This document shows positions 9,991-64,000 of a stretch of DNA of 64,000 nucleotides, one piece after another (the stretch's first letter is position 1; every line of letters begins with the position of its first letter). The stretch is from the NCBI GenBank assembly GCA_009392915.1, contig CP045477.1, positions 288,001 to 352,000 of the forward strand. The letters are read 5' to 3'. Below the pieces are notes generated by a model. It was not told the origin of the DNA and ran no database searches. It worked only from the letters and a program-made list of their open reading frames with translations. The stretch is from Candidatus Forterrea multitransposorum CG_2015-17_Forterrea_25_41 (GTDB lineage: Archaea > Iainarchaeota > Iainarchaeia > Iainarchaeales > CSSED10-239). Made by a program: the position numbers and the translations under genes.

Positions 9991-10081
9991 ATAAAAAAAG
10001 AGATTCCTTTTTTAAATGTTGTGAAGCATAATTATATATTATATTAAAGGATTTTTTTTAAAAAAAATATAAGTGATTAAT

Positions 10082-10576
10082 ATGGATTGGAATAGATTTA
10101 ATACACAATTAAGAAGTGCAGTTGATACAGGAAAAGTAATTTATGGAACTAAAGAGACTTTAAGAGAATGTCTTGTTGGTGAACCTAAATTAGTTGTTGT
10201 TTCAAAGAATATAAAAAACATTACAAAAAAAGAAATTGAACATTTCTCAAACAAACTTAAGATTCATTTTATTGAATATCCAGAAAATGGTTTTGAATTA
10301 GGTTCTGTTTGTGGAAAACCTTTTAATATTTCTTCACTTGTAATTAAAGATTTAGGTCAATCATCAATTGTTGATGTTATTAACTTAAAAGAAGTTGTTG
10401 AAGAAAAAATGACTAAGTCTAAAATTAAAGCTGAAAAAAGACAAGTTAAAGAAGAAAAGAAAGCTGAAAAATCTAAAGCAAAGAAATTAAAAGAAATACA
10501 AAAAGAAGAAGATGATGAAAAGTCTATTAAAGAAGACGCAGCTTTAAAAGGAATTTTAAAAATTAAAAAGAAATAA
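10082..10576 (+). CDS. rpl30e: ribosomal protein L30e with a ~60-aa K/E-rich C-terminal extension
   Basis: MDWNRFNTQLRSAVDTGKVIYGTKET...LVVVSKN resembles L30e (L7Ae superfamily). Position after rpoA2 is canonical. The track start GTG at 10073 was moved to ATG 10082. Confidence 0.75.
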   Translation: MDWNRFNTQLRSAVDTGKVIYGTKETLRECLVGEPKLVVVSKNIKNITKKEIEHFSNKLKIHFIEYPENGFELGSVCGKPFNISSLVIKDLGQSSIVDVINLKEVVEEKMTKSKIKAEKRQVKEEKKAEKSKAKKLKEIQKEEDDEKSIKEDAALKGILKIKKK

Positions 10577-10580
10577 TTAA

Positions 10581-10841
10581 ATGGCTAGAAAAAATATAAA
10601 TAATTTTAACAGGAAAAAAAAAGTTGTAAAAGAAGCTATACCAGTTTCTGAGCAAAAAGTTAAAAAAATAAAACCTGGTAAAATTACTGCTGAAATTTCT
10701 ACTTTAATGAGTTTTGGTATTTATGTTAATAATCCAAAGAAAGCAGAAATGCTTTTAGCGGAAATATTTAAGGAAGCAAAAATAAGCGGCGAATCTATAT
10801 CTCTTGTTGCTAAGAGATTTAGAAATAAATTAAAAAAATAA
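10581..10841 (+). CDS. small basic hypothetical protein occupying the position where nusA is normally found
   Basis: 86 aa, lysine-rich. It contains PGKITAEISTL (a possible degenerate GxxG-like segment) but no clear KH-domain signature. It is tightly packed between rpl30e and rps12. Confidence 0.4.
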   Translation: MARKNINNFNRKKKVVKEAIPVSEQKVKKIKPGKITAEISTLMSFGIYVNNPKKAEMLLAEIFKEAKISGESISLVAKRFRNKLKK

Positions 10842-12031: not shown

Positions 12032-12787
12032 ATGACTAGATTTAAAAATACTTTAAAAAAGTTATTACCAGATAGACTTAGATATGGAAAAGGCTATGTT
12101 CTTGAAAATAAAATGTCTAAAGTTTCAACTTCTTATAATATTAAAGAATATAATATAAATTATTTAAAAGAAGTTAATAATTTTTATAAAACATTTAGAC
12201 TAGATTCTAAAAAATATTCTCTTTCTAAAACTAATTTTAAAGCTTTAAGAAATAAAGACTCAAGAGAGCTTGTTGTTAGAGGAGTTTATTCTCTTTTTAA
12301 ATCTTTTAATGTTTCTGATGAATTAATTTTAAAAAGATTTCCAAATAAAACAAAAAAAGAAAGAGAGCTTATTAAAAATAAGTTATATAATCAGAAATAT
12401 CCTAAACTTGCAAGTGAAGTTATTGAAAGTATTAATTTATTTTTAAAAACTAGAAAACAAGAAATGCAACCAAGATACTTAGAAAAATTTGCAGAAATTT
12501 TTTATGAACTTAATCTTTTAAAAGAAAAAGAAAATTTAAGAATTGAAGGAAATAAATTTTTTTTAGAAGTTTTTAATAAACTTAATGAAATCACAAAACA
12601 AGAAAATAATTCTCAAAAAATAAACAATTCAACTCCTGCTTATGATTATTTATCTTCAATTTCTGGAGATTTTATTGAATTTGTAATTAGAAGTAGAAGT
12701 AATAATAAAAATAAATATGTAACTGTTAAAGAATTTAAAAAAGAACAATTTTCTTTAGATAGAATTAAAAAATATAGTGTTAGGTAA
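12032..12787 (+). CDS. hypothetical protein (no recognisable domain) inserted between rps7 and fusA
   Basis: 251-aa ORF, K/N-rich, predicted largely helical, with no motif I could assign. Confidence 0.5.
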   Translation: MTRFKNTLKKLLPDRLRYGKGYVLENKMSKVSTSYNIKEYNINYLKEVNNFYKTFRLDSKKYSLSKTNFKALRNKDSRELVVRGVYSLFKSFNVSDELILKRFPNKTKKERELIKNKLYNQKYPKLASEVIESINLFLKTRKQEMQPRYLEKFAEIFYELNLLKEKENLRIEGNKFFLEVFNKLNEITKQENNSQKINNSTPAYDYLSSISGDFIEFVIRSRSNNKNKYVTVKEFKKEQFSLDRIKKYSVR

Positions 12788-12821
12788 ATTTTATAATAAT
12801 TTTTAAAAGAAAAGAAAAATC

Positions 12822-13451
12822 ATGCAAAAAGATAATAACTGGGATAATATTTATTCTTCTGTAAAGAATCTTAAAAAACTTCCTTGGGTAAGAACCACAA
12901 TACCAGAGTGGTTTAAACTAATAATTAATTCTAAATGGATAGCCCCTTGTAAAACATTAGATGTTGGGTGTGGAAATGGTTATTTTTCATATTATCTTTC
13001 AAAAAAAGGCTTTAAAGTTACAGGTATTGATGTTTCAAAAGAAATTATTATTTATGCAAAAAAATCTTATCCTCAAAGTAATAATCTAAAATTTATTGTG
13101 TCTAATTTTTTTAATAAAGAAACTCTTTCTGAAAAATATAATTTTATTTTAGATATTGGACTTTTCCATAATATCTTACCAGAGAAAAGAAAAGAATTTT
13201 CAAAAAGACTTTCAGAGCTTCTTTTTGATAAAGGTAAGGTTTTAATCTTTTGTTTTGATAAAAGAGAAGGTACTTTTGAGAATAAAGAAATATACTTTAA
13301 TTCATTAATTAACATGTATTCATATCCTCTTTCAAAAGAAGAAATAATTAAAACTTTTAGTAAAGATTTTATTATTGAAAAAATAGAAGAAATAAGACAT
13401 GGTACAAATAATTATAAAAGACGTTATCTTTGTTTTTTAATTAAAAAATAA
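12822..13451 (+). CDS. class I SAM-dependent methyltransferase
   Basis: Motif I LDVGCGNGYFSYYLSKKGFKVTGIDVS. Small (209 aa) Rossmann-fold methyltransferase. Confidence 0.7.
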   Translation: MQKDNNWDNIYSSVKNLKKLPWVRTTIPEWFKLIINSKWIAPCKTLDVGCGNGYFSYYLSKKGFKVTGIDVSKEIIIYAKKSYPQSNNLKFIVSNFFNKETLSEKYNFILDIGLFHNILPEKRKEFSKRLSELLFDKGKVLIFCFDKREGTFENKEIYFNSLINMYSYPLSKEEIIKTFSKDFIIEKIEEIRHGTNNYKRRYLCFLIKK

Positions 13452-13644: not shown

Positions 13645-15843
13645 ATGGGAAGAAAAGAACAAGTTGCTGAGCTTGCAGAAAAGCTTATGGCAAATACAAA
13701 AAATATTAGAAATATTGCAATTATTGCACACATTGATCATGGAAAATCTACTTTAACAGACAATTTAGTTGCAACTGCTGGTTTAATTTCAAAAGATTTA
13801 GCAGGAGAACAAAGATTCATGGATTCATATGTTTTAGAACAAGAAAGAGGAATTACAATTAATTCTGCAAACGTTTCTGTTCCATGTGATATTGATGGTG
13901 AAAAATTTTTAATAAATATTATTGATACACCAGGTCACGTTGATTTCACTGGTGATGTTATAAGAGCGATGAGAGCTGTTGATGGTGCTGTTTTAGTTGT
14001 TGATGCTGTTGAAGGTGTTATGCCACAAACAGAAACTGTATTAAGACAAGCTTTAAGAGAAAAAGTAAAACCTGTACTTTTTATTAATAAAGTTGATAGA
14101 TTAATTACAGAAATGCATGTAACTCCAGAAGATATGCAAAAGAAATTTGTTAAAGTTGTAATGGATATTAATAATTTAATTGCAAAAAATGCTCCTGAAG
14201 AATTCAGAAAAGATTGGTTAGTAAATATTGCAGATGGTTCTGTATGTTTTGGTTCTGGTTTCCATAATTGGTCTCTTTCAGTTCCTGCTATGAAAAAATA
14301 TAATGTAACTTTTAAAGATGTTATTGAGTATGCAGAAAATGAAAAACAAAAAGAACTTGCAGATAAAATTCCAATTTCAGAAGTTTTCTTAGGAATGGTT
14401 GCAAAACATCTTCCTGATCCAAAGACTTCTCAAAAATATAGAATCCCAACTATTTGGAAAGGAGATCCTGAATCCCCAGAAGGAAAAGCAATGTCTGAAT
14501 GTAATACTACATCAGAAGAAGTTTCAATGATGGTAACTGATATTGTTTTAGATAAACATGCAGGAGATATTGCTTCTGGAAGAATTTATTCTGGATCAAT
14601 TAAAAAAGGAATGGATTTAAAAGTTTTAGGAACAGATAGAACAACTAAAGTTCAATATGTTGGTATTTATTTAGGTCCTGAAAGAGTTATTTTAGATGAA
14701 GTAAAATCTGGAAATATTGCTGCAATTATTGGACTTAAAGAAGTTTATGCTGGTCAAACAATTGCAAGTCACGATATTGTTCCATTTGAAGATTTCATGT
14801 CAGATGTTGAACCAGTAATGACTGTTTCTGTTGAAGCTAAAAATTCAAAAGATCTTCCAAGATTAATTCAAGTTATTCATAATATAACTAAAGAAGATCC
14901 AAACATAAAAGCTGAATTAAATCAAGATACAGGAGAACATCTTTTATCAGGTATGGGTGAACTTCACTTAGAAATTACACAATACAAGATTGAAAAAGAT
15001 AATAATATTCCAATAACTGTTTCACCACCAATTGTTGTTTACTATGAAACAACAACACAAGAATCTCCAGTTGTTGAAGGAAAGACTCCAAACAAACACA
15101 ATAAATTTAAAGTTAGAGTTGAACCAATCTCTTCAGAAATGCTTGAAAAAATTAGAAAAATTAAGTTTACTGGAAAGATAAGACCTAACAAAGATTTAGA
15201 TATTATTAAAAAATTACAAGAAGCAGGATTTGATGTTGACGAATCAAAGAATGTTTGGGCAATCAATAATCATTCAATTTTAATTAATAGAACAAAAGGA
15301 ATACAAAACTTAAATGAAGTTAGAGAACTTATAATTGAAGGATTTACAGATGCTACAAATGAAGGTCCTGTTGCTAAAGAAAAAGTATCTGGAATTATTG
15401 TTTCTCTTGAAGATGCAACATTACACGAAGATGCAATCCACAGAGGTCCTGCACAAGTTCTTCCTGCAATAACAAGAGCAATATATGCTGGTGTACTTGC
15501 TGGTAACTATGTTCTTTTAGAACCAAAACAAAGTTTAACTGTTTCAGTTCCTCAAGATTTTATGGGTTCTGTTTCTAAAGTTTTATCTTCAAGAAGAGCA
15601 CAAATTGAAGATATTAAAACAGAAGGAGATTCTTCAATTTTTATTAGTAAGATTCCTGTAAAATCAATGATTGGTTTCTCACAAGAGATGAGAGGAGAAA
15701 CACAAGGTAGAGCTGTTTGGACTGCTGAATATTTTGGTTATGAACAACTTCCAAAAAGTATGCTTAAAGACACAATCATAGATATTAGAAAAAGAAAAGG
15801 TATGGATCCTGAACCAAAACCTGCTGAGTTTTTCATGGATTAA
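13645..15843 (+). CDS. fusA: translation elongation factor 2 (aEF-2)
   Basis: G-domain AHIDHGKST, DTPGHVDF and NKVDR motifs. The diphthamide-loop is DATLHEDAIHRGPAQV. 732 aa. AAGGTGA Shine-Dalgarno lies upstream. Confidence 0.93.
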   Translation: MGRKEQVAELAEKLMANTKNIRNIAIIAHIDHGKSTLTDNLVATAGLISKDLAGEQRFMDSYVLEQERGITINSANVSVPCDIDGEKFLINIIDTPGHVDFTGDVIRAMRAVDGAVLVVDAVEGVMPQTETVLRQALREKVKPVLFINKVDRLITEMHVTPEDMQKKFVKVVMDINNLIAKNAPEEFRKDWLVNIADGSVCFGSGFHNWSLSVPAMKKYNVTFKDVIEYAENEKQKELADKIPISEVFLGMVAKHLPDPKTSQKYRIPTIWKGDPESPEGKAMSECNTTSEEVSMMVTDIVLDKHAGDIASGRIYSGSIKKGMDLKVLGTDRTTKVQYVGIYLGPERVILDEVKSGNIAAIIGLKEVYAGQTIASHDIVPFEDFMSDVEPVMTVSVEAKNSKDLPRLIQVIHNITKEDPNIKAELNQDTGEHLLSGMGELHLEITQYKIEKDNNIPITVSPPIVVYYETTTQESPVVEGKTPNKHNKFKVRVEPISSEMLEKIRKIKFTGKIRPNKDLDIIKKLQEAGFDVDESKNVWAINNHSILINRTKGIQNLNEVRELIIEGFTDATNEGPVAKEKVSGIIVSLEDATLHEDAIHRGPAQVLPAITRAIYAGVLAGNYVLLEPKQSLTVSVPQDFMGSVSKVLSSRRAQIEDIKTEGDSSIFISKIPVKSMIGFSQEMRGETQGRAVWTAEYFGYEQLPKSMLKDTIIDIRKRKGMDPEPKPAEFFMD

Positions 15844-15871
15844 TTTTTCTTTTTCTTTTTTCTTTTATTTT

Positions 15872-15930
15872 TTTGTCCTTCTTTATATCTAGGACAAAGC
15901 TTCTTTTTTTCTTTTCTTTTTCTTTAAAAC
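15872..15930 (+). terminator. hairpin (TTTGTCCT...AGGACAAA, 8-bp stem) followed by T-rich tract downstream of fusA
   Basis: Inverted repeat at 15872-15879 and 15891-15898 with an 11-nt loop. It is followed by CTTCTTTTTTTCTTTTCTTTTTCTTT. Confidence 0.4.
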
Positions 15931-16106
15931 TATTTGTTTTATAATATTCTTCAAACTTTTTCTTGTTTTATTATTTGGACAGTTTATTTTTTTTATTAAA
16001 AATAATTATTTTTAAAAAATATATAACATTTATAAATGTTTACATCTACAGTATATAATATATTTTATTATTCTGCTTTTGCAGAAAAATTGGAGGGAGA
16101 AAAAAA

Positions 16107-16346
16107 ATGGCTGTAAAAAAGAAAGTAGTTGCAAAAAAAGCACCTGCTAAAAAAGCTGTTGTTAAGAAAAAAGCACCTGTTAAAAAAGTAGTTGCTAAAA
16201 AAGCACCAGCTAAAAAAGTAGTTGCAAAAAAAGCACCTGCTAAAAAAGCTGTTGTTAAAAAAGCACCTGCTAAAAAAGTAGTTGCTAAAAAAGCACCAGC
16301 TAAAAAAGTAGTTAAAAAGAAAGCACCTGCTAAAAAGAAAAAATAG
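16107..16346 (+). CDS. lysine/alanine-rich histone H1-like (Hc1/AlgP-like) tandem-repeat DNA-binding protein
   Basis: 79 aa made almost entirely of (V)VAKKAPAKK(A) repeats. A strong GGAGGGAG Shine-Dalgarno lies 6-8 nt upstream. The repeat is encoded by 30-nt tandem DNA repeats. Confidence 0.6.
   Translation: MAVKKKVVAKKAPAKKAVVKKKAPVKKVVAKKAPAKKVVAKKAPAKKAVVKKAPAKKVVAKKAPAKKVVKKKAPAKKKK
16125..16337. repeat. seven tandem copies of a 30-nt unit (GTAGTTGCAAAAAAAGCACCTGCTAAAAAA and variants) inside the H1-like gene
   Basis: Directly visible in the sequence. The units differ by synonymous and near-synonymous substitutions. Confidence 0.8.
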
Positions 16347-16476
16347 GTGTCATCTTTATTTAATAACTATTTTATTTTAATAAGTCTTTTTTTATAAAAG
16401 GCTTATTTTTTCTATTTTTTTAATATTTTCTTTTAAAAAATATATTTAAATACCTTAATATCTATCTATATATATC

Positions 16477-17604
16477 ATGATTAAAAATATAACTTTATTA
16501 GGTTCAAATAATGATATTGGTATTAAGACAATTGAGTTTTTAAAAAACAATACTAATAAGTTTAAAATCTATTCTCTTTCTTATGACTCTAAGGTAGATA
16601 ATCTTGATTTTTTTATATCTCAAATAAAAGATGTTTCTCCAAAGAAAGTTTTTATACCTTTAGAAAAAGATGCTGAATATATAGAATCTAAAACTAAGGT
16701 TGAGATAATTACAGGTACTGAAAATTTTCCTGAGTTTATAAAATCAAATGAAATTGATCAAGTAATTTCTTCTTTATCAGGACTTTCAAGTGTTAAAAAA
16801 ATATTATCAACTATTTATGAGTTTAAAGATATTACTTTACTTAATACATCTCCTTTTCTATATTGTGGAAGAATAATTACAAATGAAGTTAAATCAAAAG
16901 GAGTAAATTTTAATATTTTTTCATATCCAGTTTATTCTTTAGATTTTATTTTAAAATCTTCAAATATTAATTTTATTAAAAATATTAATTTATTTACAAA
17001 ACAAAAAAACAAAAAAGAAAAAATAACTATTAATGATTATAAAGATTTTGGAAGTTATCTTAAAGCATATTATTCTGAAAATAATATAAGACTTGTAAAT
17101 GATATGTTTATTATTTATTATTTATATAATATTCCAATAGATAATTTTAATTTTTATGAACAATCAGAAAGAATAATAAATATTGAAATAAAATTTTTAA
17201 ATGGTACAAGTGTTTTCTTTAAAGCAAATCTAGATATAGATAGTATTTTTAATTATTATTTTTTAGATAATGAAAAAATAGTTGAAAATAAAGAAAAAGA
17301 TCTTGATAAAATATCTTTTTCATATAAAAAAATAGATCCAACTAAAGAAAAGTTTTTAAGTTTAGGTATAGAAACTTTAAAAAAAGGTGGTTCTTTTCCA
17401 ATAATCTATTATATAACAATTGAAACATTACTTTATTATATTTATAAAAGAAAAATTAAAGAAAACATAGATATTTATAAAATTGTTAAAGAATTTTTAG
17501 AAGACAAAACACTTTATGATAAATTCCCTGATTTAAGTTCTGTTTATGCTATTGATAATAAGATAAATGAAAAAATCAAAAATAAATTTAATATTAAAAA
17601 CTAA
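16477..17604 (+). CDS. DXR-like protein (1-deoxy-D-xylulose-5-phosphate reductoisomerase homolog), apparently catalytically degenerate
   Basis: Alignment is collinear with E. coli Dxr as I recall it. ITLLGSNNDIG aligns to LTILGSTGSIG, LLNTSPFLYCGRII to LLANKESLVTCGRLF, and the YPVYSL position to the catalytic PVDSEH. NGTSVFFKANL aligns to DGSVLAQL, and a C-terminal helical domain is present. The GxGxxG and DSEH residues are replaced. Confidence 0.5.
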   Translation: MIKNITLLGSNNDIGIKTIEFLKNNTNKFKIYSLSYDSKVDNLDFFISQIKDVSPKKVFIPLEKDAEYIESKTKVEIITGTENFPEFIKSNEIDQVISSLSGLSSVKKILSTIYEFKDITLLNTSPFLYCGRIITNEVKSKGVNFNIFSYPVYSLDFILKSSNINFIKNINLFTKQKNKKEKITINDYKDFGSYLKAYYSENNIRLVNDMFIIYYLYNIPIDNFNFYEQSERIINIEIKFLNGTSVFFKANLDIDSIFNYYFLDNEKIVENKEKDLDKISFSYKKIDPTKEKFLSLGIETLKKGGSFPIIYYITIETLLYYIYKRKIKENIDIYKIVKEFLEDKTLYDKFPDLSSVYAIDNKINEKIKNKFNIKN

Positions 17605-44172: not shown

Positions 44173-44775
44173 TTATTTCTTTATTTTTTTAGTTGTTTTT
44201 TTCTTTTTAGAAACTACTTTTTTAGTTTTTGGTTTAGTAGTAGTTTTCTTTTTAGTCATTGGTTTTTCTTTCTTTGCAGATACTTTTTCTTTTTTACTAG
44301 GTTTATCAACCCATGCAACAATACCTAAAACAATTAAGTTTGCAAGGCTTACTAAAGTTAATAAACTTAAAGCACCGTGATAATTTCTTTTTTCAAATAT
44401 TTTCCAAATCCAGTATGTTCTAAAAGACACTAATATTAAAGTTCCAATTAAAATAAGTAAAGATAAAAACATATTTATAAATGGAATTAGTGTAAATGGA
44501 AGGAAAAGTAAAGGTGCAACTATTGGAAGTAAAGCAATAAAACCCCATTCCCATCTTTCTTCAGCTAAAATTGGATAAAGAAAGTATTGTCCTATTGGTA
44601 TCCATGCAAGAAAAGCATATTTAGAGTTTAATTTTTTTGCAATTGTATATAATGCAAATGCTTTATATAAAAATACTGCTAATAAAATTATTATTGCAAA
44701 ATAAAACATAAACACTAATAAAGAACCAAACCCTAAACCAAAAAGAGTTCCAGTTAGTAATTCATCAGTAATCAT
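44173..44775 (-). CDS. membrane protein with lysine-rich C-terminal tail
   Basis: Four TM segments followed by SKKEKVSAKKEKPMTKKKTTTKPKTKKVVSKKKKTTKKIKK. Confidence 0.45.
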   Translation of the reverse strand: MITDELLTGTLFGLGFGSLLVFMFYFAIIILLAVFLYKAFALYTIAKKLNSKYAFLAWIPIGQYFLYPILAEERWEWGFIALLPIVAPLLFLPFTLIPFINMFLSLLILIGTLILVSFRTYWIWKIFEKRNYHGALSLLTLVSLANLIVLGIVAWVDKPSKKEKVSAKKEKPMTKKKTTTKPKTKKVVSKKKKTTKKIKK

Positions 44776-59117: not shown

Positions 59118-59618
59118 ATGGAAAACATATTTCAAACAATCTTAAATTATTTATTATTTATTTTAAAGTTAGTTGGTGTTTCAATACTTTTCTCAATTCC
59201 TTTCTTTATAATTGTAAAAATATTCAAATCTAAATTTATTAATTTAAGAAAGAAATTTAGTGTTATTGGTTCTCTTTTTATAATTATTTATATAATTTCA
59301 TACATTATTTTATTATTAATTTATTTTTTACCAATTATTTCAACTTTTTATCAAGATTTAACATTTTGGCAATCAGTAGGTTTTATTTTCTATCATTTAA
59401 TAAGATTAATTTTAATTAACATAATAATTTCAGGAGTTATTCTTTCCTTTTCATTTATAACTCTTGCAATTTATGATAAGTCTGAAACAAATAAAAAGAA
59501 ACCTTATCATAATCTTAATTTATTTAAAAGTCTAATAATTACAAATATAATTATATTTTTTATATTATTAGTCTTTCCAAAATTAATAGCATTATTAGTT
59601 TATTTAATATATATATAA
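59118..59618 (+). CDS. membrane protein (4-5 TM)
   Basis: 166 aa, hydrophobic. GGGGA Shine-Dalgarno. Immediately upstream of the giant ORF. Confidence 0.45.
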   Translation: MENIFQTILNYLLFILKLVGVSILFSIPFFIIVKIFKSKFINLRKKFSVIGSLFIIIYIISYIILLLIYFLPIISTFYQDLTFWQSVGFIFYHLIRLILINIIISGVILSFSFITLAIYDKSETNKKKPYHNLNLFKSLIITNIIIFFILLVFPKLIALLVYLIYI

Positions 59619-59631
59619 AAAAAGAGAAACT

Positions 59632-62600
59632 ATGAAAACAAAAAGACTTTGGGCAATATTTTTTTTAATATTAATGATAAATGGAGTTTTTGCATCTACA
59701 ATAGATCCAAACAGAGTATTTTCAACTGAAGATACATCTTATTATTTTGATGATGCTATTCCAATTAATTATACAGATGAACCTATAAACTATACTCAAG
59801 ATAAAGTTATTTCAGAATGTTACACAGAAGAGCTTTCTCCTGAAGCTGTAGAAAATATTTGGAATGAGATTTTAGTTAATGGTTTTAAAGCTGATTTAAT
59901 AACAAGTGATCAACCTGCAAACTTAAATAGAGAAACATTAAAAGCAAATGAAGTTATAATTACAGACAAAGATACAAAATCAGGAGATGTTGTAGGAAAA
60001 ACAGAAATTCCTGATAAAATAATGGATCCTTTAGAAGTTCCAACTATTTTAGGTCAAGTATGTTATGGTCCTTTTTCAAGTGGACTTGATCTTGATAGTA
60101 CCCTAAGAGTTGGAAGATGTGCTGGTGGAGACCAAGCAGCTTGTTATCTTGAAGGAGAAGGATTATTTAGACAAAATGGAAGTTATGGTTTTATTGATCA
60201 AACTTTTTCTGTAAGTAAAGATTTTTTAGATATGTTAGGTCTTAAAAAATTAGAAGAAGTTTCAAATGAATTAATTGACCCAGAGTTAGATTATGATACA
60301 AATGTTGATTTAGGTTTATTTTCTGATATGTCTTATGAAGAACTTGCAGAGTTTAGAAAAAGTCAATTTCAAGATAGTAATTTAACTGAAATAGATATTA
60401 AAAAAATGGAATTAGTTTTAGATAAAGCTATTGAAAACAGTATGTTTACTGATTCTTTTAATGCAAGTATGGAAAGCACTTGTAATTCTGATAATTGTTA
60501 TATTAACATGTATTCTCTTTTTGACAAAGTTTTTAATCAATATTATTCTGCTGATATGGTATTTACTTCAGCATCTCCTGTTCTTTGGAAATTTACTGGA
60601 AAAATATTTAGAAATGTACCAAATAAACTTGGAGCTCAAAAATTAATTGCATCTGATAAGATTGGTGGAATAAGAGGTAAAAATGGTTTTTTAGATAATT
60701 TTTTAAATAAAGATATGAGTGCAGTAAGTTCTGCAGTACAAACCTATAAATATTCAAAGATTACAAAAAACATTGATGATTATGCTGCTAAACTTGCAAA
60801 AAGTAATGACAATATAATCAAGAATATTAATAGATATAACATGAAACCAGAGTTTGATAAATATGTAAATGCTTTAAACTCTAAAAAGAATGCAGACACA
60901 ATTAAAAATGAATTCTTTAAAGATGGAGCTTTTGCAAAAATGAATAAACCTCAACAAAGAGTGTTCATGGAATCTGTTCTTGAATATCAAAACAATATTA
61001 GAACAGTTAGAATGGTACAAGATTTTACAACTGATAATTTAAAAAATACTTTAAAAGAACCTCTTGAAAATTTATTTAATAAATCTAAAACAATGGAAGA
61101 CTTTTATCAATCTTTAACAAAAGAAGAATATGATCTTTTACTTGAAGAAACAAAAAGATTAAATGGTCTTAATAAATCATTTTCAACATTTACTGAAAAT
61201 AAATTTAAATGGGATGATGGTGCTGATAATATCACTCTTTTAAAAGAAAGAGGAAAAATAATTAATGATGAAGAAGTTTTATTAAATAAAGTAAGACTTA
61301 AAAATGAAGTAACTTCAACAGAACTTACAGGATCTTCTAAATTTGGAGATATTATTTCTGAAAATAAAGTTTCTCCTTTCCAAACTAAAAAAATAACTGT
61401 TAATTTTAAAGATGGTCCAAGTGAGGTTGAAGTAATTATTCCTTTTAAAGAAAAAATAAGTGATACTTCAACTATGCTTAATTATAATGATATAATATAT
61501 AACAAAAAACCAGATGTATTAATAGAATATGTTGCAAAAGATGGAACTGCAAAAAAAGTGAGAGGCTCTGTAATTGATATTGGAGATGTTGATCCTGGTA
61601 AACAAATAAATATGAGAGATATTAAAGATACTGCAGTTCCTGATGCAGAACTTTCAAAATATGGAATTAATCCTTTAGAAGTATCTTATGGTTATTTACA
61701 AGAACTTGGAATTAAAAAAATAAAAGATGCAGAAATAGTAACTGATGGTGTCGTAAGTGTTTTAAAAGACCAAGGATGGAGTACAGGAAGAGGATTAAGT
61801 TATATAAATCAAAGAATGAAACAACAAACTGTAACTCAATGGGATAAAAGAGGATTTAATATAATGTCAGATTCTGCAAAAGCTTATCTTTATAATTTTG
61901 GATATTGGCAATTTAAAACAGCTGGTTCAACTATATTTGGTGGAGCTTTTGATAGATATAGTATGTTTAGAATACCAGAAACATATACTTCTATTATTTT
62001 TAAACATGGTGAAAGTGGAGATATATACAATGATTCTTATATAGATTTCTTTGCAAATGATGGTTCTGATCAAGGAGATCTTTTTATGGATTATTTTAAT
62101 TCAATTATATTTTGGATGGTAAATCTTCCTAAAGGTGCTTTAGAAAACACAGAGTGGGAAACAACACAAGGTTTTTCAAACTGGATAACAGAACTAACTG
62201 AAGGACATATAAGAAGAAGTTCTACAGATAATATTGCAATATTAACTGATGCAATGAACAATAATTGTTCAACAACTTCTTGTCATATAAAAGTTGGAGA
62301 CTCTTCTCTTCTTGAAGAAGTTACAAGAAGTAAATCTATGGATGCAAATAATTCAACATCTACAAGTCTTAAGAAAAATATTGAAGTTAATTATGCAACT
62401 GGAAATGCAATAAAAACAACAAGTTATATTTTAGAAAACACAAGTGAAGAAAACTTTGAAGAAGAAGGACAAACATTAATTGCATTTTCTCATCATACAG
62501 ATTATGATGGTTCTCTTGCAGGTTTTAACTCTACAGATTCAGTAAATCTTTTACAATCAATTAACGAAGAAGAAACTTGTTCTGATAAACTTAAAAATTT

Positions 62601-64000
62601 AGAAGTCATGGGAATACCAATAGGTTGGACAAACCAAATAACAGGAAAATCATATAGAGCAGGTGCTGTTGCAGCTGGTTTTTCAAATATTGTTTATTAT
62701 TCTTTAAGTGTTCCTCAACACAGAGTAGTTTTAGGAGCAATTTTTGGTGATATTTTACCACAAGTTGTAATTGTTCCAGAAATTTATAATTGTGTAGATC
62801 ATGAAGAAGGTTATTATTCACATTTCTTTGTTGCCTCTGAAGAATATGAAAGAATTGAAAAAGATCCAAAAAATAAAGTTGGAGATGCAATTTCAAAAGG
62901 AGCAGATTCTGTTGAAAAGAGTTTAACAAATATTACAAAGAACACAGAACTTCAAGAATCAATTTCAAAAACAACACAAGAAGTAAAACAATTTGCTGAA
63001 ACTGAAATTAAAGATAATCCAATTATGCAATCAAGAATAGAAACACAAGGTAATACTTCTGGATCAATGAATGCTAAACTTTTCTTCCTTGAAATTGGAG
63101 AAAGTTCAATGTGTAGAGCAAGTGGTTATAATGATAAAGGTGTTGAACATTTAGTTGATTCTAAAACAGGAGAAACTTTAGTTGTTGATAAAGAAGAAGG
63201 TGTTGTTGAAATTGTTGATAAAGATGGAAATGTTAAAGAAATAATTTCTTCAAAAAATAAAGATTGGGTAAGACTAATGGCAACTAACTTAGGAATTCCT
63301 GCAAAAGTAATTCCTCATAGTCTTTCATATATCCCTGTACCTGACACAAATACTCCTTTGTTTAATATTGATGTTTATGGTAATCTAAAGATAGATGATG
63401 CTGAATTTTTAAGTTGTTTAAAAAGAAATTACTATGAACAAACTGGTCTTGAAATGAGTGGTAATACTTTAACAGAATATTTAGGTTCTGTAAAACAAGT
63501 AATCACAACAAATAATTTAAACCCAGATAGTCAATATGACATAATACCAAAAGGAATGAATAGTTCAGCAGAAATAATAGCAGAAGGAACTCCAAGAAAA
63601 ATAGCTTCTGGTGAATCTGCAAGAATAAATGTTCTAGGAAACAGAACTACAAAATTATATCCTATTGAAGGAAAAGAAGTCACTCTTGGTAAAAATATTT
63701 CTGTTCAATTTGAAAGAGGACAATTAATCTATAATGGAGAAAAGAATAGTTATATTATGTGGGTTGAACAAACCTATGTAATGCATCAATCTGAAATAAA
63801 AGGAATGGATGTTGATCCTATAAAAGAAACTAATCCTGAAACTGGTTGTGAAGAAGATGCCTTTGAAATTAGTGTTTCACCAGATACTTCTAACCCTGAA
63901 GCTGTTAAAAAGTCAGAAAATATGAATAAAGCTTTAGAAAAAGTTGGACCATTTAAGATGTTTGATACACCTACAAAAACATTTATTTTCTATACAACAG
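59632..64000 (+). CDS. giant secreted/cell-surface protein, at least 1456 aa (3' end beyond window)
   Basis: ATG at 59632 after AAAGAGAAAC. Signal peptide MKTKRLWAIFFLILMINGVFAS. Frame 1 is open without a stop to the window edge by manual translation. The protein is Cys-containing and Asn/Thr-rich. It is absent from the ORF track only because it lacks a stop in the window. Confidence 0.7.
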   Translation, partial: MKTKRLWAIFFLILMINGVFASTIDPNRVFSTEDTSYYFDDAIPINYTDEPINYTQDKVISECYTEELSPEAVENIWNEILVNGFKADLITSDQPANLNRETLKANEVIITDKDTKSGDVVGKTEIPDKIMDPLEVPTILGQVCYGPFSSGLDLDSTLRVGRCAGGDQAACYLEGEGLFRQNGSYGFIDQTFSVSKDFLDMLGLKKLEEVSNELIDPELDYDTNVDLGLFSDMSYEELAEFRKSQFQDSNLTEIDIKKMELVLDKAIENSMFTDSFNASMESTCNSDNCYINMYSLFDKVFNQYYSADMVFTSASPVLWKFTGKIFRNVPNKLGAQKLIASDKIGGIRGKNGFLDNFLNKDMSAVSSAVQTYKYSKITKNIDDYAAKLAKSNDNIIKNINRYNMKPEFDKYVNALNSKKNADTIKNEFFKDGAFAKMNKPQQRVFMESVLEYQNNIRTVRMVQDFTTDNLKNTLKEPLENLFNKSKTMEDFYQSLTKEEYDLLLEETKRLNGLNKSFSTFTENKFKWDDGADNITLLKERGKIINDEEVLLNKVRLKNEVTSTELTGSSKFGDIISENKVSPFQTKKITVNFKDGPSEVEVIIPFKEKISDTSTMLNYNDIIYNKKPDVLIEYVAKDGTAKKVRGSVIDIGDVDPGKQINMRDIKDTAVPDAELSKYGINPLEVSYGYLQELGIKKIKDAEIVTDGVVSVLKDQGWSTGRGLSYINQRMKQQTVTQWDKRGFNIMSDSAKAYLYNFGYWQFKTAGSTIFGGAFDRYSMFRIPETYTSIIFKHGESGDIYNDSYIDFFANDGSDQGDLFMDYFNSIIFWMVNLPKGALENTEWETTQGFSNWITELTEGHIRRSSTDNIAILTDAMNNNCSTTSCHIKVGDSSLLEEVTRSKSMDANNSTSTSLKKNIEVNYATGNAIKTTSYILENTSEENFEEEGQTLIAFSHHTDYDGSLAGFNSTDSVNLLQSINEEETCSDKLKNLEVMGIPIGWTNQITGKSYRAGAVAAGFSNIVYYSLSVPQHRVVLGAIFGDILPQVVIVPEIYNCVDHEEGYYSHFFVASEEYERIEKDPKNKVGDAISKGADSVEKSLTNITKNTELQESISKTTQEVKQFAETEIKDNPIMQSRIETQGNTSGSMNAKLFFLEIGESSMCRASGYNDKGVEHLVDSKTGETLVVDKEEGVVEIVDKDGNVKEIISSKNKDWVRLMATNLGIPAKVIPHSLSYIPVPDTNTPLFNIDVYGNLKIDDAEFLSCLKRNYYEQTGLEMSGNTLTEYLGSVKQVITTNNLNPDSQYDIIPKGMNSSAEIIAEGTPRKIASGESARINVLGNRTTKLYPIEGKEVTLGKNISVQFERGQLIYNGEKNSYIMWVEQTYVMHQSEIKGMDVDPIKETNPETGCEEDAFEISVSPDTSNPEAVKKSENMNKALEKVGPFKMFDTPTKTFIFYTT

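Follow-up and report, generated by a model that had tools for sequence, protein, structure and literature searches.

A conserved lysine-rich repeat gene of Iainarchaeota, a candidate nucleic acid-neutralising polycation

Bacteria and eukaryotes are well known to have lysine-, alanine- and proline-rich proteins that resemble the tail of histone H1. A 64-kb stretch of DNA (here termed the window; ~24% GC) from an archaeon of the Nanobdellati (DPANN), phylum Iainarchaeota, contains a small open reading frame that would encode such a tail and nothing else, directly behind the gene for elongation factor EF-2, where a sequence-only reading had expected the genes for EF-1alpha (tuf) and ribosomal protein S10 (rps10). 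That reading took the ORF for an expressed, H1-like protein gene placed at the end of a str-like operon. The locus raises the questions of whether this is a genuine gene, whether it belongs to the operon it appears to follow, and what a protein of such simple composition may do.

The 79-residue protein and its tandem array

The limits proposed for the ORF are exact; the ORF and its array lie as follows.

16107–16346, forward strand: coding sequence of a 79-amino acid polycationic protein (ORF list and translation)
16122–16336, forward strand: tandem array within the coding sequence, 30-nt (10-codon) unit, 7.1 copies (Tandem Repeats Finder, TRF; codon table)

The translated product, MAVKKKVVAKKAPAKKAVVKKKAPVKKVVAKKAPAKKVVAKKAPAKKAVVKKAPAKKVVAKKAPAKKVVKKKAPAKKKK, is laid out as MAVKKK, seven units of the form [V/A][V][A/V/K]KKAP[A/V]KK and a final KK. 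It is composed of 35 lysines, 20 alanines, 16 valines, seven prolines and one methionine (44% K, 25% A, 9% P), with no acidic or aromatic residue, a net charge of +35 and a pI of 11.5. Successive prolines are 11, 10, 10, 10, 10 and 10 residues apart; PAKK occurs six times and PVKK once, and SPKK or TPKK not at all. TRF scored the array at 298 with 83% matches, in agreement with the seven-fold repetition of 30 nt described earlier; its longest exact internal repeat is 44 nt and AAA codons predominate in the ORF. A single-sequence AlphaFold model, which says little beyond disorder, gave a mean pLDDT of 63 and a pTM of 0.12 without any DSSP element, and the protein is predicted to be intrinsically disordered. 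Its sequence shows neither a signal peptide nor a hydrophobic segment, and it lacks any amphipathic pattern.

Only one of the 893 ATG-initiated ORFs of at least 11 codons in the window combines K ≥ 40% with KAPV ≥ 80%, and none did so in 100 second-order Markov simulations; these counts and simulations rule out a chance origin of the ORF from AT-rich sequence. The ORF has a GC content of 31.7%, about twice the 17.5% and 13.1% of the sequences on either side. The product is on record, letter for letter, in 58 collection blocks, from which 24 contigs were read (one is a JGI contig of 663,621 bp). A one-off assembly artefact is unlikely given this recurrence and the modest length of the longest exact repeat.

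Orthologues, flanking signals and neighbouring genes

Relatives with EF-2 identities of 74–99% are metagenome-assembled genomes labelled Candidatus Iainarchaeum, ainarchaeum, Diapherotrites or merely archaea. We scanned 23 EF-2-anchored loci, plus two from metagenomes, for orthologues (handles beginning with L). Wherever a relative offered enough downstream sequence, a syntenic, lysine-rich ORF preceded by a Shine–Dalgarno (SD) element was found (19 Iainarchaeota assemblies). The family was defined by an SD-preceded ATG, a length of 11–80 amino acids, at least 44% K+R, no acidic or aromatic residue, a TATA-like box and a DXR-like gene 100–130 nt downstream; in addition to the window gene it comprises 20 ORFs from the 19 assemblies. 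The last feature was excepted for L013, where the contig ends before the DXR-like gene. The lengths of the orthologues are as follows.

Long and intermediate forms: L016, 78 aa; L026, 68 aa; L002, 42 aa; L018, 70 aa; L025, 80 aa; L003, 56 aa; L004, 79 aa; L015, 74 aa; L005, 34 aa; L013, at least 33 aa (the contig end cuts the ORF)
Two ORFs each: L006, 26 and 11 aa; L007, 16 and 11 aa
Short forms: L008, 14 aa; L009, 11 aa; L011, 19 aa; L012, 13 aa; L014, 12 aa; L019, 13 aa; L020, 20 aa

The proteins begin with MAVKKK, MVVKKK or MAAKKK and end in poly-K; the shortest, MAAKKKKAKKK, has 11 residues, of which 64% are lysine. In L006 and L007 the gene is present twice in complete form, and each copy has a promoter-like box and a terminator to itself. 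A composition scan of ~300 kb returned these ORFs and one K/T-rich internal tail of a membrane protein of the window. An exact-sequence look-up of 10 orthologues in a clustered protein collection found none of them; such mini-genes are missing from the clustered collections searched and hence are easily overlooked.

The signals around the gene were called from the conservation of archaeal TATA-like sequences and from RNAfold predictions, and are as follows.

15844–15874, forward strand: T-rich tract directly past the EF-2 stop codon (sequence; TRF T-rich rows)
16025–16043, forward strand: BRE/TATA-like block AACATTTATAAATGTTTAC, ~70 nt 5' of the ATG (leader alignment)
16054–16064, forward strand: second AT block TATAATATAT (invariant columns T37 A38 T40 A41 T42 A43, alignment A2)
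16071–16086, forward strand: 5'-leader stem-loop UUCUGC-UUUU-GCAGAA (RNAfold, −7.7 kcal/mol; z = −2.5)
16092–16099, forward strand: SD element GGAGGGAG, 7–10 nt before the ATG, with GGAGG at 16092–16096
16379–16425, forward strand: 3' stem-loop AAUAAGUCUUUU...AAAAGGCUUAUU (16379–16407) followed by a U-run (RNAfold, −10.3 kcal/mol)

The T-rich tract is likely to mark the end of the EF-2 transcript by archaeal oligo-T termination. The block at 16025–16043, with the TATA-like box TTTATAAA at 16029–16036, is the most strongly conserved upstream sequence in 10 aligned orthologous leaders and may serve the small gene as an archaeal promoter; all orthologues have the box, as cATTTATAAATGTTTa or gcTTTATATATCT, 70–80 nt upstream. 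The second AT block lies ~20–27 nt 3' of the box, a spacing that suggests a putative transcription start region. The leader hairpin recurs at the same place in relatives with arms that differ by lineage (UCUGUA/UACAGA in L004, UUCUUU/GAAGAA in L005 and L015, UUUGCAAA/UUUGCAAA in L006, CUGUAAA/UUUACAG in L007), and its z-scores range from −1.8 to −3.7 in the subclade of the window and are weak elsewhere; they derive from per-sequence folding against dinucleotide shuffles, the MAFFT alignment (A3) being out of structural register.

GGAGG or GGGGG stands 7–10 nt before the ATG in 21/21 orthologous ORFs. The strong GGAGG noted in the first reading is present, an SD core of at least 5 nt being found in just 11 of 65 genes of the window, and the gene is probably strongly translated. 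The 3' element is putatively terminator-like or mRNA-stabilising; an equivalent hairpin and U-run with lineage-specific arms occurs in L016, L002, L018, L006, L009, L011, L014 and L019, and most orthologues have either a hairpin and U-run or a long T-run past the stop codon. A consensus promoter and terminator scan, built for sigma-70 promoters and G+C-rich terminators (not archaeal), reported nothing relevant, and as it demands at least three G–C pairs it missed the hairpin at 16379–16407. ARAGORN detected no tRNA in the window. The T-run past EF-2, the conserved TATA-like box and the gene's own 3' hairpin and U-run all point to the small gene being a separate transcription unit. The earlier suggestion of expression can be strengthened to very probable, judging by promoter-like, SD and terminator-like elements and a reading frame that are conserved in all relatives.

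The recurrence of syntenic orthologues with a TATA-like box, SD, ATG, lysine-rich ORF and hairpin/U-run or T-run demonstrates that 16107–16346 is a real, conserved gene; absence of the ORF from relatives, which the first reading had named as grounds for abandoning its view, is contradicted. The contrary explanation denies that this is a functional coding gene and sees in it a spurious ORF on a slippage-prone, A-rich repeat, or else a non-coding RNA or an artefact of assembly. It could draw on the low complexity of the sequence, on +1 and +2 frames that are also open in some orthologous arrays (L004), on the absence of the orthologues from the clustered collections and on exact repeats of 58–116 nt in some arrays, which short-read assemblers could collapse. 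Against this, 21 ORFs have kept the SD, the ATG and the stop codon, all repeat units are multiples of 3 nt, the arrays of L003 and L004 differ synonymously only, and acidic and aromatic residues are absent. Such an ORF has a chance expectation of ~0, the identical product recurs in the collection blocks noted above, exact repeats in the window array do not exceed 44 nt, and no Rfam family was matched in the window. We consider this explanation barely credible.

The position of the gene was then compared with that of its neighbours. The window cluster runs rpoH, rpoB'', rpoB', rpoA', rpoA'', L30e, an 86-amino acid ORF, S12 and S7, and EF-2 (13645–15843) is already parted from S7 by two unrelated genes, one for a 251-amino acid protein of unknown function and one for a SAM methyltransferase. 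EF-2 is followed by the small ORF and then by the DXR-like gene, beyond which lie a convergent gene for an archaeal D-aminoacyl-tRNA deacylase (DTD) and MMPL transporter genes.

16477–17604, forward strand: DXR-like gene, the downstream neighbour (Pfam PF02670 at 4e-15)

EF-1alpha and S10 gave no tblastn match across the 64-kb window, and tuf and rps10 are absent from the 6 kb 3' of EF-2 in all members of the clade. The order EF-2–EF-1alpha–S10 is kept in a more distant Iainarchaeum (L017) and in a Methanosarcinales genome (L023), indicating that it was broken in the ancestor of this clade. The observation that tuf and rps10 have been displaced from behind EF-2 was therefore correct; the accompanying view of the small gene as the tail of a str-like operon was not, given the T-run past EF-2 and the gene's own TATA-like box and 3' hairpin/U-run. 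The ORF as a 'replacement' of tuf and rps10 in the str operon was likewise rejected, on its own signals, its linkage to the DXR-like gene and the comparison with L017 and L023.

In L007, L008 and L012, 1.5–2.3 kb of other genes are inserted past EF-2 and the mini-gene still lies 100–130 nt 5' of the DXR-like gene; the adjacency of these two genes is found in all relatives with enough sequence, rearranged loci included. As this linkage survives the insertions that break the one with EF-2, the DXR-like gene, not EF-2, is the conserved partner of the small gene. DTD is equally conserved as a neighbour, and the synteny of the mini-gene may be passive.

This constant spacing, the hairpin and U-run between the two genes and the dominance of AAA codons could be explained by a leader peptide or uORF in which translation of AAA lysine codons is coupled to read-through of the terminator-like hairpin into the DXR-like gene. 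The DXR-like gene, however, lacks an SD, and a TATA-like box of its own stands ~30 nt ahead of its ATG; it is apparently leaderless and independently transcribed. Leader peptides moreover seldom reach 80 amino acids or keep their composition across differing units, the two copies in L006 and L007 are each complete with promoter-like box and terminator, and the equal conservation of DTD again allows for passive synteny. A leader peptide is on these grounds highly unlikely.

In-frame repeat growth and selection on the peptide

The repeat unit is 30 nt in the window, L016 and L018, 33 nt in L003 and L004 and 51 nt in L015, in each case a multiple of three. L003 and L004 encode an identical unit, KKKAPVKKAVV, with two to three synonymous differences per unit (GCT/GCA, GTG/GTT, AAA/AAG) and no non-synonymous difference, a pattern that is expected for purifying selection together with within-lineage homogenisation. 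D, E, F, W and Y are absent across the 21 orthologues, in which lysine is replaced by R and T alone; codons for Glu, Asn, Ile and Gln and a stop codon are each one mutation from AAA. The in-frame unit lengths, the synonymous-only differences between L003 and L004 and the complete lack of acidic and aromatic residues demonstrate that selection acts on the peptide, for a purely cationic, non-aromatic composition.

Within these bounds the family varies about eight-fold in length, from 11 to 80 amino acids. In a rough neighbour-joining tree of EF-2, the subclade of the window has mostly long forms, and the long forms of L015, L005 and L013 are nested among genomes with forms of 11–20 amino acids. 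As the nested long forms are built from a different unit, the amplifications must have been independent. The short forms resemble the two termini of the long forms, joined either directly or through one or two units. Long forms therefore arose several times by in-frame amplification and were then homogenised in each lineage, and the sequences suggest that the gene grew in this way from an 11-residue ancestor.

Changes in repeat number, which the sequence-only reading had anticipated from the tandem structure, do take place, in whole in-frame units: species range from 39 to 80 amino acids, with a unit of 30, 33 or 51 nt, and near-identical strains differ as well. Over 4,749 nt, a single 30-nt unit is all that separates L025 from L018 (80 versus 70 amino acids), and L026 and L016, which are 99.2% identical, also differ by one unit (68 versus 78 amino acids); the arrays of both pairs contain exact repeats of 44–64 nt, for which short-read collapse is possible.

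Family resemblances, proposed function and alternatives

The likeness to H1 tails, Hc2 and AlgP had been put forward on composition, and the only family matches obtained are indeed to H1-like models, all of them below cutoff. Pfam HC2 (PF07382) gave 35.4 bits (E = 1.5e-8) against a gathering cutoff of 40 bits, and matched 5/12 orthologues at E < 0.01; NCBIfam NF038053 (Burkholderiales histone H1-like) gave 33.7 bits against a cutoff of 80, NF038052 (Hc2) 21.7 against 135, and the Rv3852 family 29.7 against 100. No linker-histone winged-helix domain was matched in Pfam at E ≤ 0.01 and the predicted structure lacks secondary structure. The protein had also been judged to be neither an archaeal histone nor Alba, which is consistent with the lack of any histone-fold or Alba match in Pfam and NCBIfam and with a model devoid of fold. 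The resemblance to H1 and Hc2 is compositional and of low complexity, and membership of those families is not established; homology is beyond proof precisely because the sequence is of low complexity. The independent expansions within Iainarchaeota indicate that such sequences converge readily, and the same conclusion was reached for PAKKA tails by Kushwaha and Grove (PMC3553676).

A word-indexed homologue search returned compositional look-alikes only, and not the query's own cluster. In these look-alikes the K/A/P decapeptide of the window protein recurs as a tail fused to 4-OT tautomerase, L30p, SWIB, HU or DksA-like domains; DNA-related proteins are among them, one architecture being a DdbA-like H1 domain with DksA. 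HMMER against 1.84 billion representatives gave 319 hits, the best 148 of which have a median length of ~360 amino acids and include no pure K/A/P/V protein, a list that is no proof of rarity as the bias correction of HMMER probably hides true analogues.

Among characterised systems, the Hc2/HC2/BpH1-type proteins are likewise Lys/Ala-rich, highly basic, built from repeats of variable number and devoid of a globular fold, but their profiles span roughly 170–200 amino acids, whereas the window protein has 79, is archaeal and is built on a decapeptide with Pro and Val-Val. The C-terminal domain of H1 (about 40% Lys, with Ala and Pro) is similar in K/A/P composition, disorder and size range, as is kinetoplastid H1, which lacks a globular domain; the window protein differs from H1 in being Val-rich and in having neither a winged-helix domain nor the S/TPKK minor-groove motif. 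The KPAA domains of AlgP and PhaF are also tandem K/P/A repeats, but AlgP, which is associated with polyphosphate (polyP) granules, joins a tetrapeptide unit to a 124-amino acid helical N-terminal domain and the window protein is the repeat alone. A PAKK core is shared with the tails of actinobacterial HU/Hlp (HupB, HupS), Mycobacterium smegmatis Ku and Streptomyces DdbA; such PAKKA-type tails are appended to folded DNA-binding domains, the nearest database look-alikes sharing this arrangement of a tail on a domain, and the window protein has no folded partner domain. The chromatin-related tails of the Asgard histones HLoB and HMpB are archaeal, disordered and Lys-rich too (>30% Lys in the N-terminal tails; bioRxiv 10.64898/2026.07.02.735847), but comprise 16–32 amino acids fused to a histone fold, in contrast to a free-standing DPANN gene without one.

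By analogy with these systems, the best explanation, which we hold with about even confidence, is that we are dealing with a disordered polycation whose role is to neutralise and condense nucleic acid, DNA being the likeliest target. Its action would depend on bulk charge, not on a fold: it would bind the backbone phosphates of the 24%-GC genome without specificity, neutralise their charge and bridge or condense the DNA, which is how the H1 C-terminal domain, chlamydial Hc2, the KPAA tails of AlgP and PhaF and mycobacterial PAKKA tails operate; each molecule would deliver a charge fixed by its repeat number. DNA is favoured as the target by experimental precedents. KPAA peptides and the domain at the C terminus of AlgP, a protein predicted to be disordered and with a repeat number that differs among isolates, bind DNA (PMC9239181); PAKKA repeats touch DNA and draw segments of it together (PMC3553676); DdbA has a K-rich H1-like domain that binds plasmid DNA and condenses it (PMC3643593); and chromatin compaction needs the C-terminal domain of H1, which resembles bacterial Lys-rich proteins (PMC8015243) and acts in charge neutralisation and DNA condensation (PMC8015243; PMC3643593). 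A linker-like partnership with histones is conceivable, given that Diapherotrites genomes are listed as encoding histones (PMC6136690, Table 1). A tblastn search of ~325 kb with HMfA/B and Alba query sequences, a weak test that bears on this DNA only, gave no match.

The main difficulty for a nucleoid protein is posed by the members of 11–14 amino acids, which are far shorter than characterised nucleoid proteins, and the ancestral role of the family may be unrelated to chromatin. Nor would a nucleoid role account for the constant adjacency to the DXR-like gene. Polycations bind RNA, ribosomes and polyP as readily as DNA. An RNA- or ribosome-associated polycation, or an encoded polyamine surrogate, might neutralise the phosphate of rRNA, tRNA or mRNA in the manner of small lineage-specific basic ribosomal proteins or spermidine, in a reduced genome from which polyamine synthesis may be missing. 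MAAKKKKAKKK has the look of an oligolysine rather than of a chromatin protein, the strong SD on a compact mRNA flanked by hairpins points to high expression, translation genes are nearby in most genomes, and tolerance of 11–80 amino acids fits a bulk-charge role. In opposition to this, neither the window protein nor any of 11 orthologues matched a ribosomal-protein family in Pfam or NCBIfam, the linkage with EF-2 breaks in L007, L008 and L012, and growth to 80 amino acids with ±1-unit polymorphism would be unusual in a ribosome pocket. We regard this reading as possible but rather unlikely.

A third target would be another polyanion or an extracellular one, the protein being an organiser of polyP granules or a cationic peptide acting on host or competitor membranes in episymbiosis. 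AlgP provides the precedent for the former, as a K/P/A-repeat protein that localises to polyP granules and spaces them (PMC9239181), and several look-alikes are membrane-anchored with the same repeat (P0008, P0016). The window protein, however, has neither a signal peptide nor a hydrophobic segment or amphipathic pattern, and a proline every 10 residues and the lack of large hydrophobic residues speak against a membrane-active helix, such that these roles are distinctly improbable.

The preferred DNA-directed polycation and the polyamine surrogate could also both apply, the long forms being highly expressed, H1-tail-like partners of Iainarchaeota histones (a primitive linker or condenser) and the 11-residue forms oligolysines that replace polyamines. 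This combination is unlikely in our estimation, but if true it would offer a living series in which a chromatin polycation was born from a micro-ORF and grew by repeats, and an archaeal counter-example to a bacteria-only origin of H1-like tails; the origin of H1 and of H1-like tails has been attributed to bacteria and their Lys-rich proteins (PMC9239181; PMC8015243). In the literature on archaea, DPANN and Iainarchaeum we found no description of a free-standing H1-tail-like or HC2-type protein. What is new is a familiar physico-chemical solution in another domain of life, without a folded partner. It raises two questions: does archaeal histone chromatin work with a partner of this polycationic kind, and is it mere convergence that gives rise to such proteins? 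The series from 11 to 80 amino acids, with independent amplifications of 30-, 33- and 51-nt units and strains that differ by ±1 unit, represents, unusually clearly, the growth of a micro-ORF under selection for nothing but charge.

Gene neighbourhood of the K-rich mini-gene

The K-rich mini-gene (79-aa product) lies downstream of EF-2, and the ribosomal-protein genes upstream of EF-2 are arranged with the following neighbours:

10073-10576, +, ribosomal protein L30e, with an L7Ae/L30e domain to about residue 100, beyond which the C-terminus is extended by some 65 aa rich in Lys and Glu
10581-10841, +, basic ORF of 86 aa, between L30e and S12
12032-13451, +, two unrelated genes (a 251-aa protein of unknown function and a SAM-dependent methyltransferase), between S7 and EF-2

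The slot between L30e and S12 is normally occupied in archaea by NusA; here it holds the 86-aa basic ORF, for which a Pfam search gave no match. As the two unrelated genes separate S7 from EF-2, the str-type cluster is already broken upstream of EF-2.

On its other side the mini-gene is followed by a DXR-like gene:

16477-17604, +, DXR-like gene, with a DXP reductoisomerase N-terminal domain (4e-15) and a weak C-terminal domain

This gene, which appears from its sequence to be leaderless, is carried by a DPANN archaeon; the mevalonate route is the usual one in archaea. Among the relatives compared, the K-rich mini-gene and a convergent D-aminoacyl-tRNA deacylase are its constant neighbours.

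Duplicated copies and other ORFs

Two sister genomes, represented by the EF-2-anchored loci L006 and L007 (own coordinates), both harbour two copies of the mini-gene:

L006, 2758-3119, tandem pair of 26 and 11 aa
L007, 10211-10556, tandem pair of 16 and 11 aa

Each copy in both pairs has its own TATA-like box, Shine-Dalgarno element and terminator-like hairpin, and the duplication is of the entire mini-gene, extending beyond the repeat alone.

Further ORFs of the window include:

44173-44775, -, predicted membrane protein of 200 aa with a C-terminal Lys/Thr-rich tail, KKKTTTKPKTKKVVSKKKKTTKKIKK
about 59610-64000, +, ORF of at least 1,464 aa in a single frame, open to the window end, with a signal peptide-like N-terminus

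The tail of the 200-aa protein, which had no match in a Pfam search, was the sole additional match, besides mini-gene ORFs, of a composition scan of about 300 kb (window and relatives' loci). The long ORF is probably a giant surface protein.

Database representation and look-alike proteins

No Iainarchaeota mini-protein was found in a clustered collection of 15 billion sequences, nor among the best 148 of 319 matches in the 50% representative library; the window mini-gene was nonetheless called on contigs in 58 collection blocks. Low-complexity micro-proteins of this kind seem to be lost from standard protein resources.

Three metagenomic look-alikes from the homolog search (P0007, P0013 and P0027) begin with KKAPAKKVVA repeats at the N-terminus and end in a DksA-like region, an architecture matching that described for Streptomyces DdbA (PMC3643593). 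Their decapeptide is identical to the unit of the archaeal mini-protein, which suggests that one and the same repeat has been reached repeatedly by convergence.
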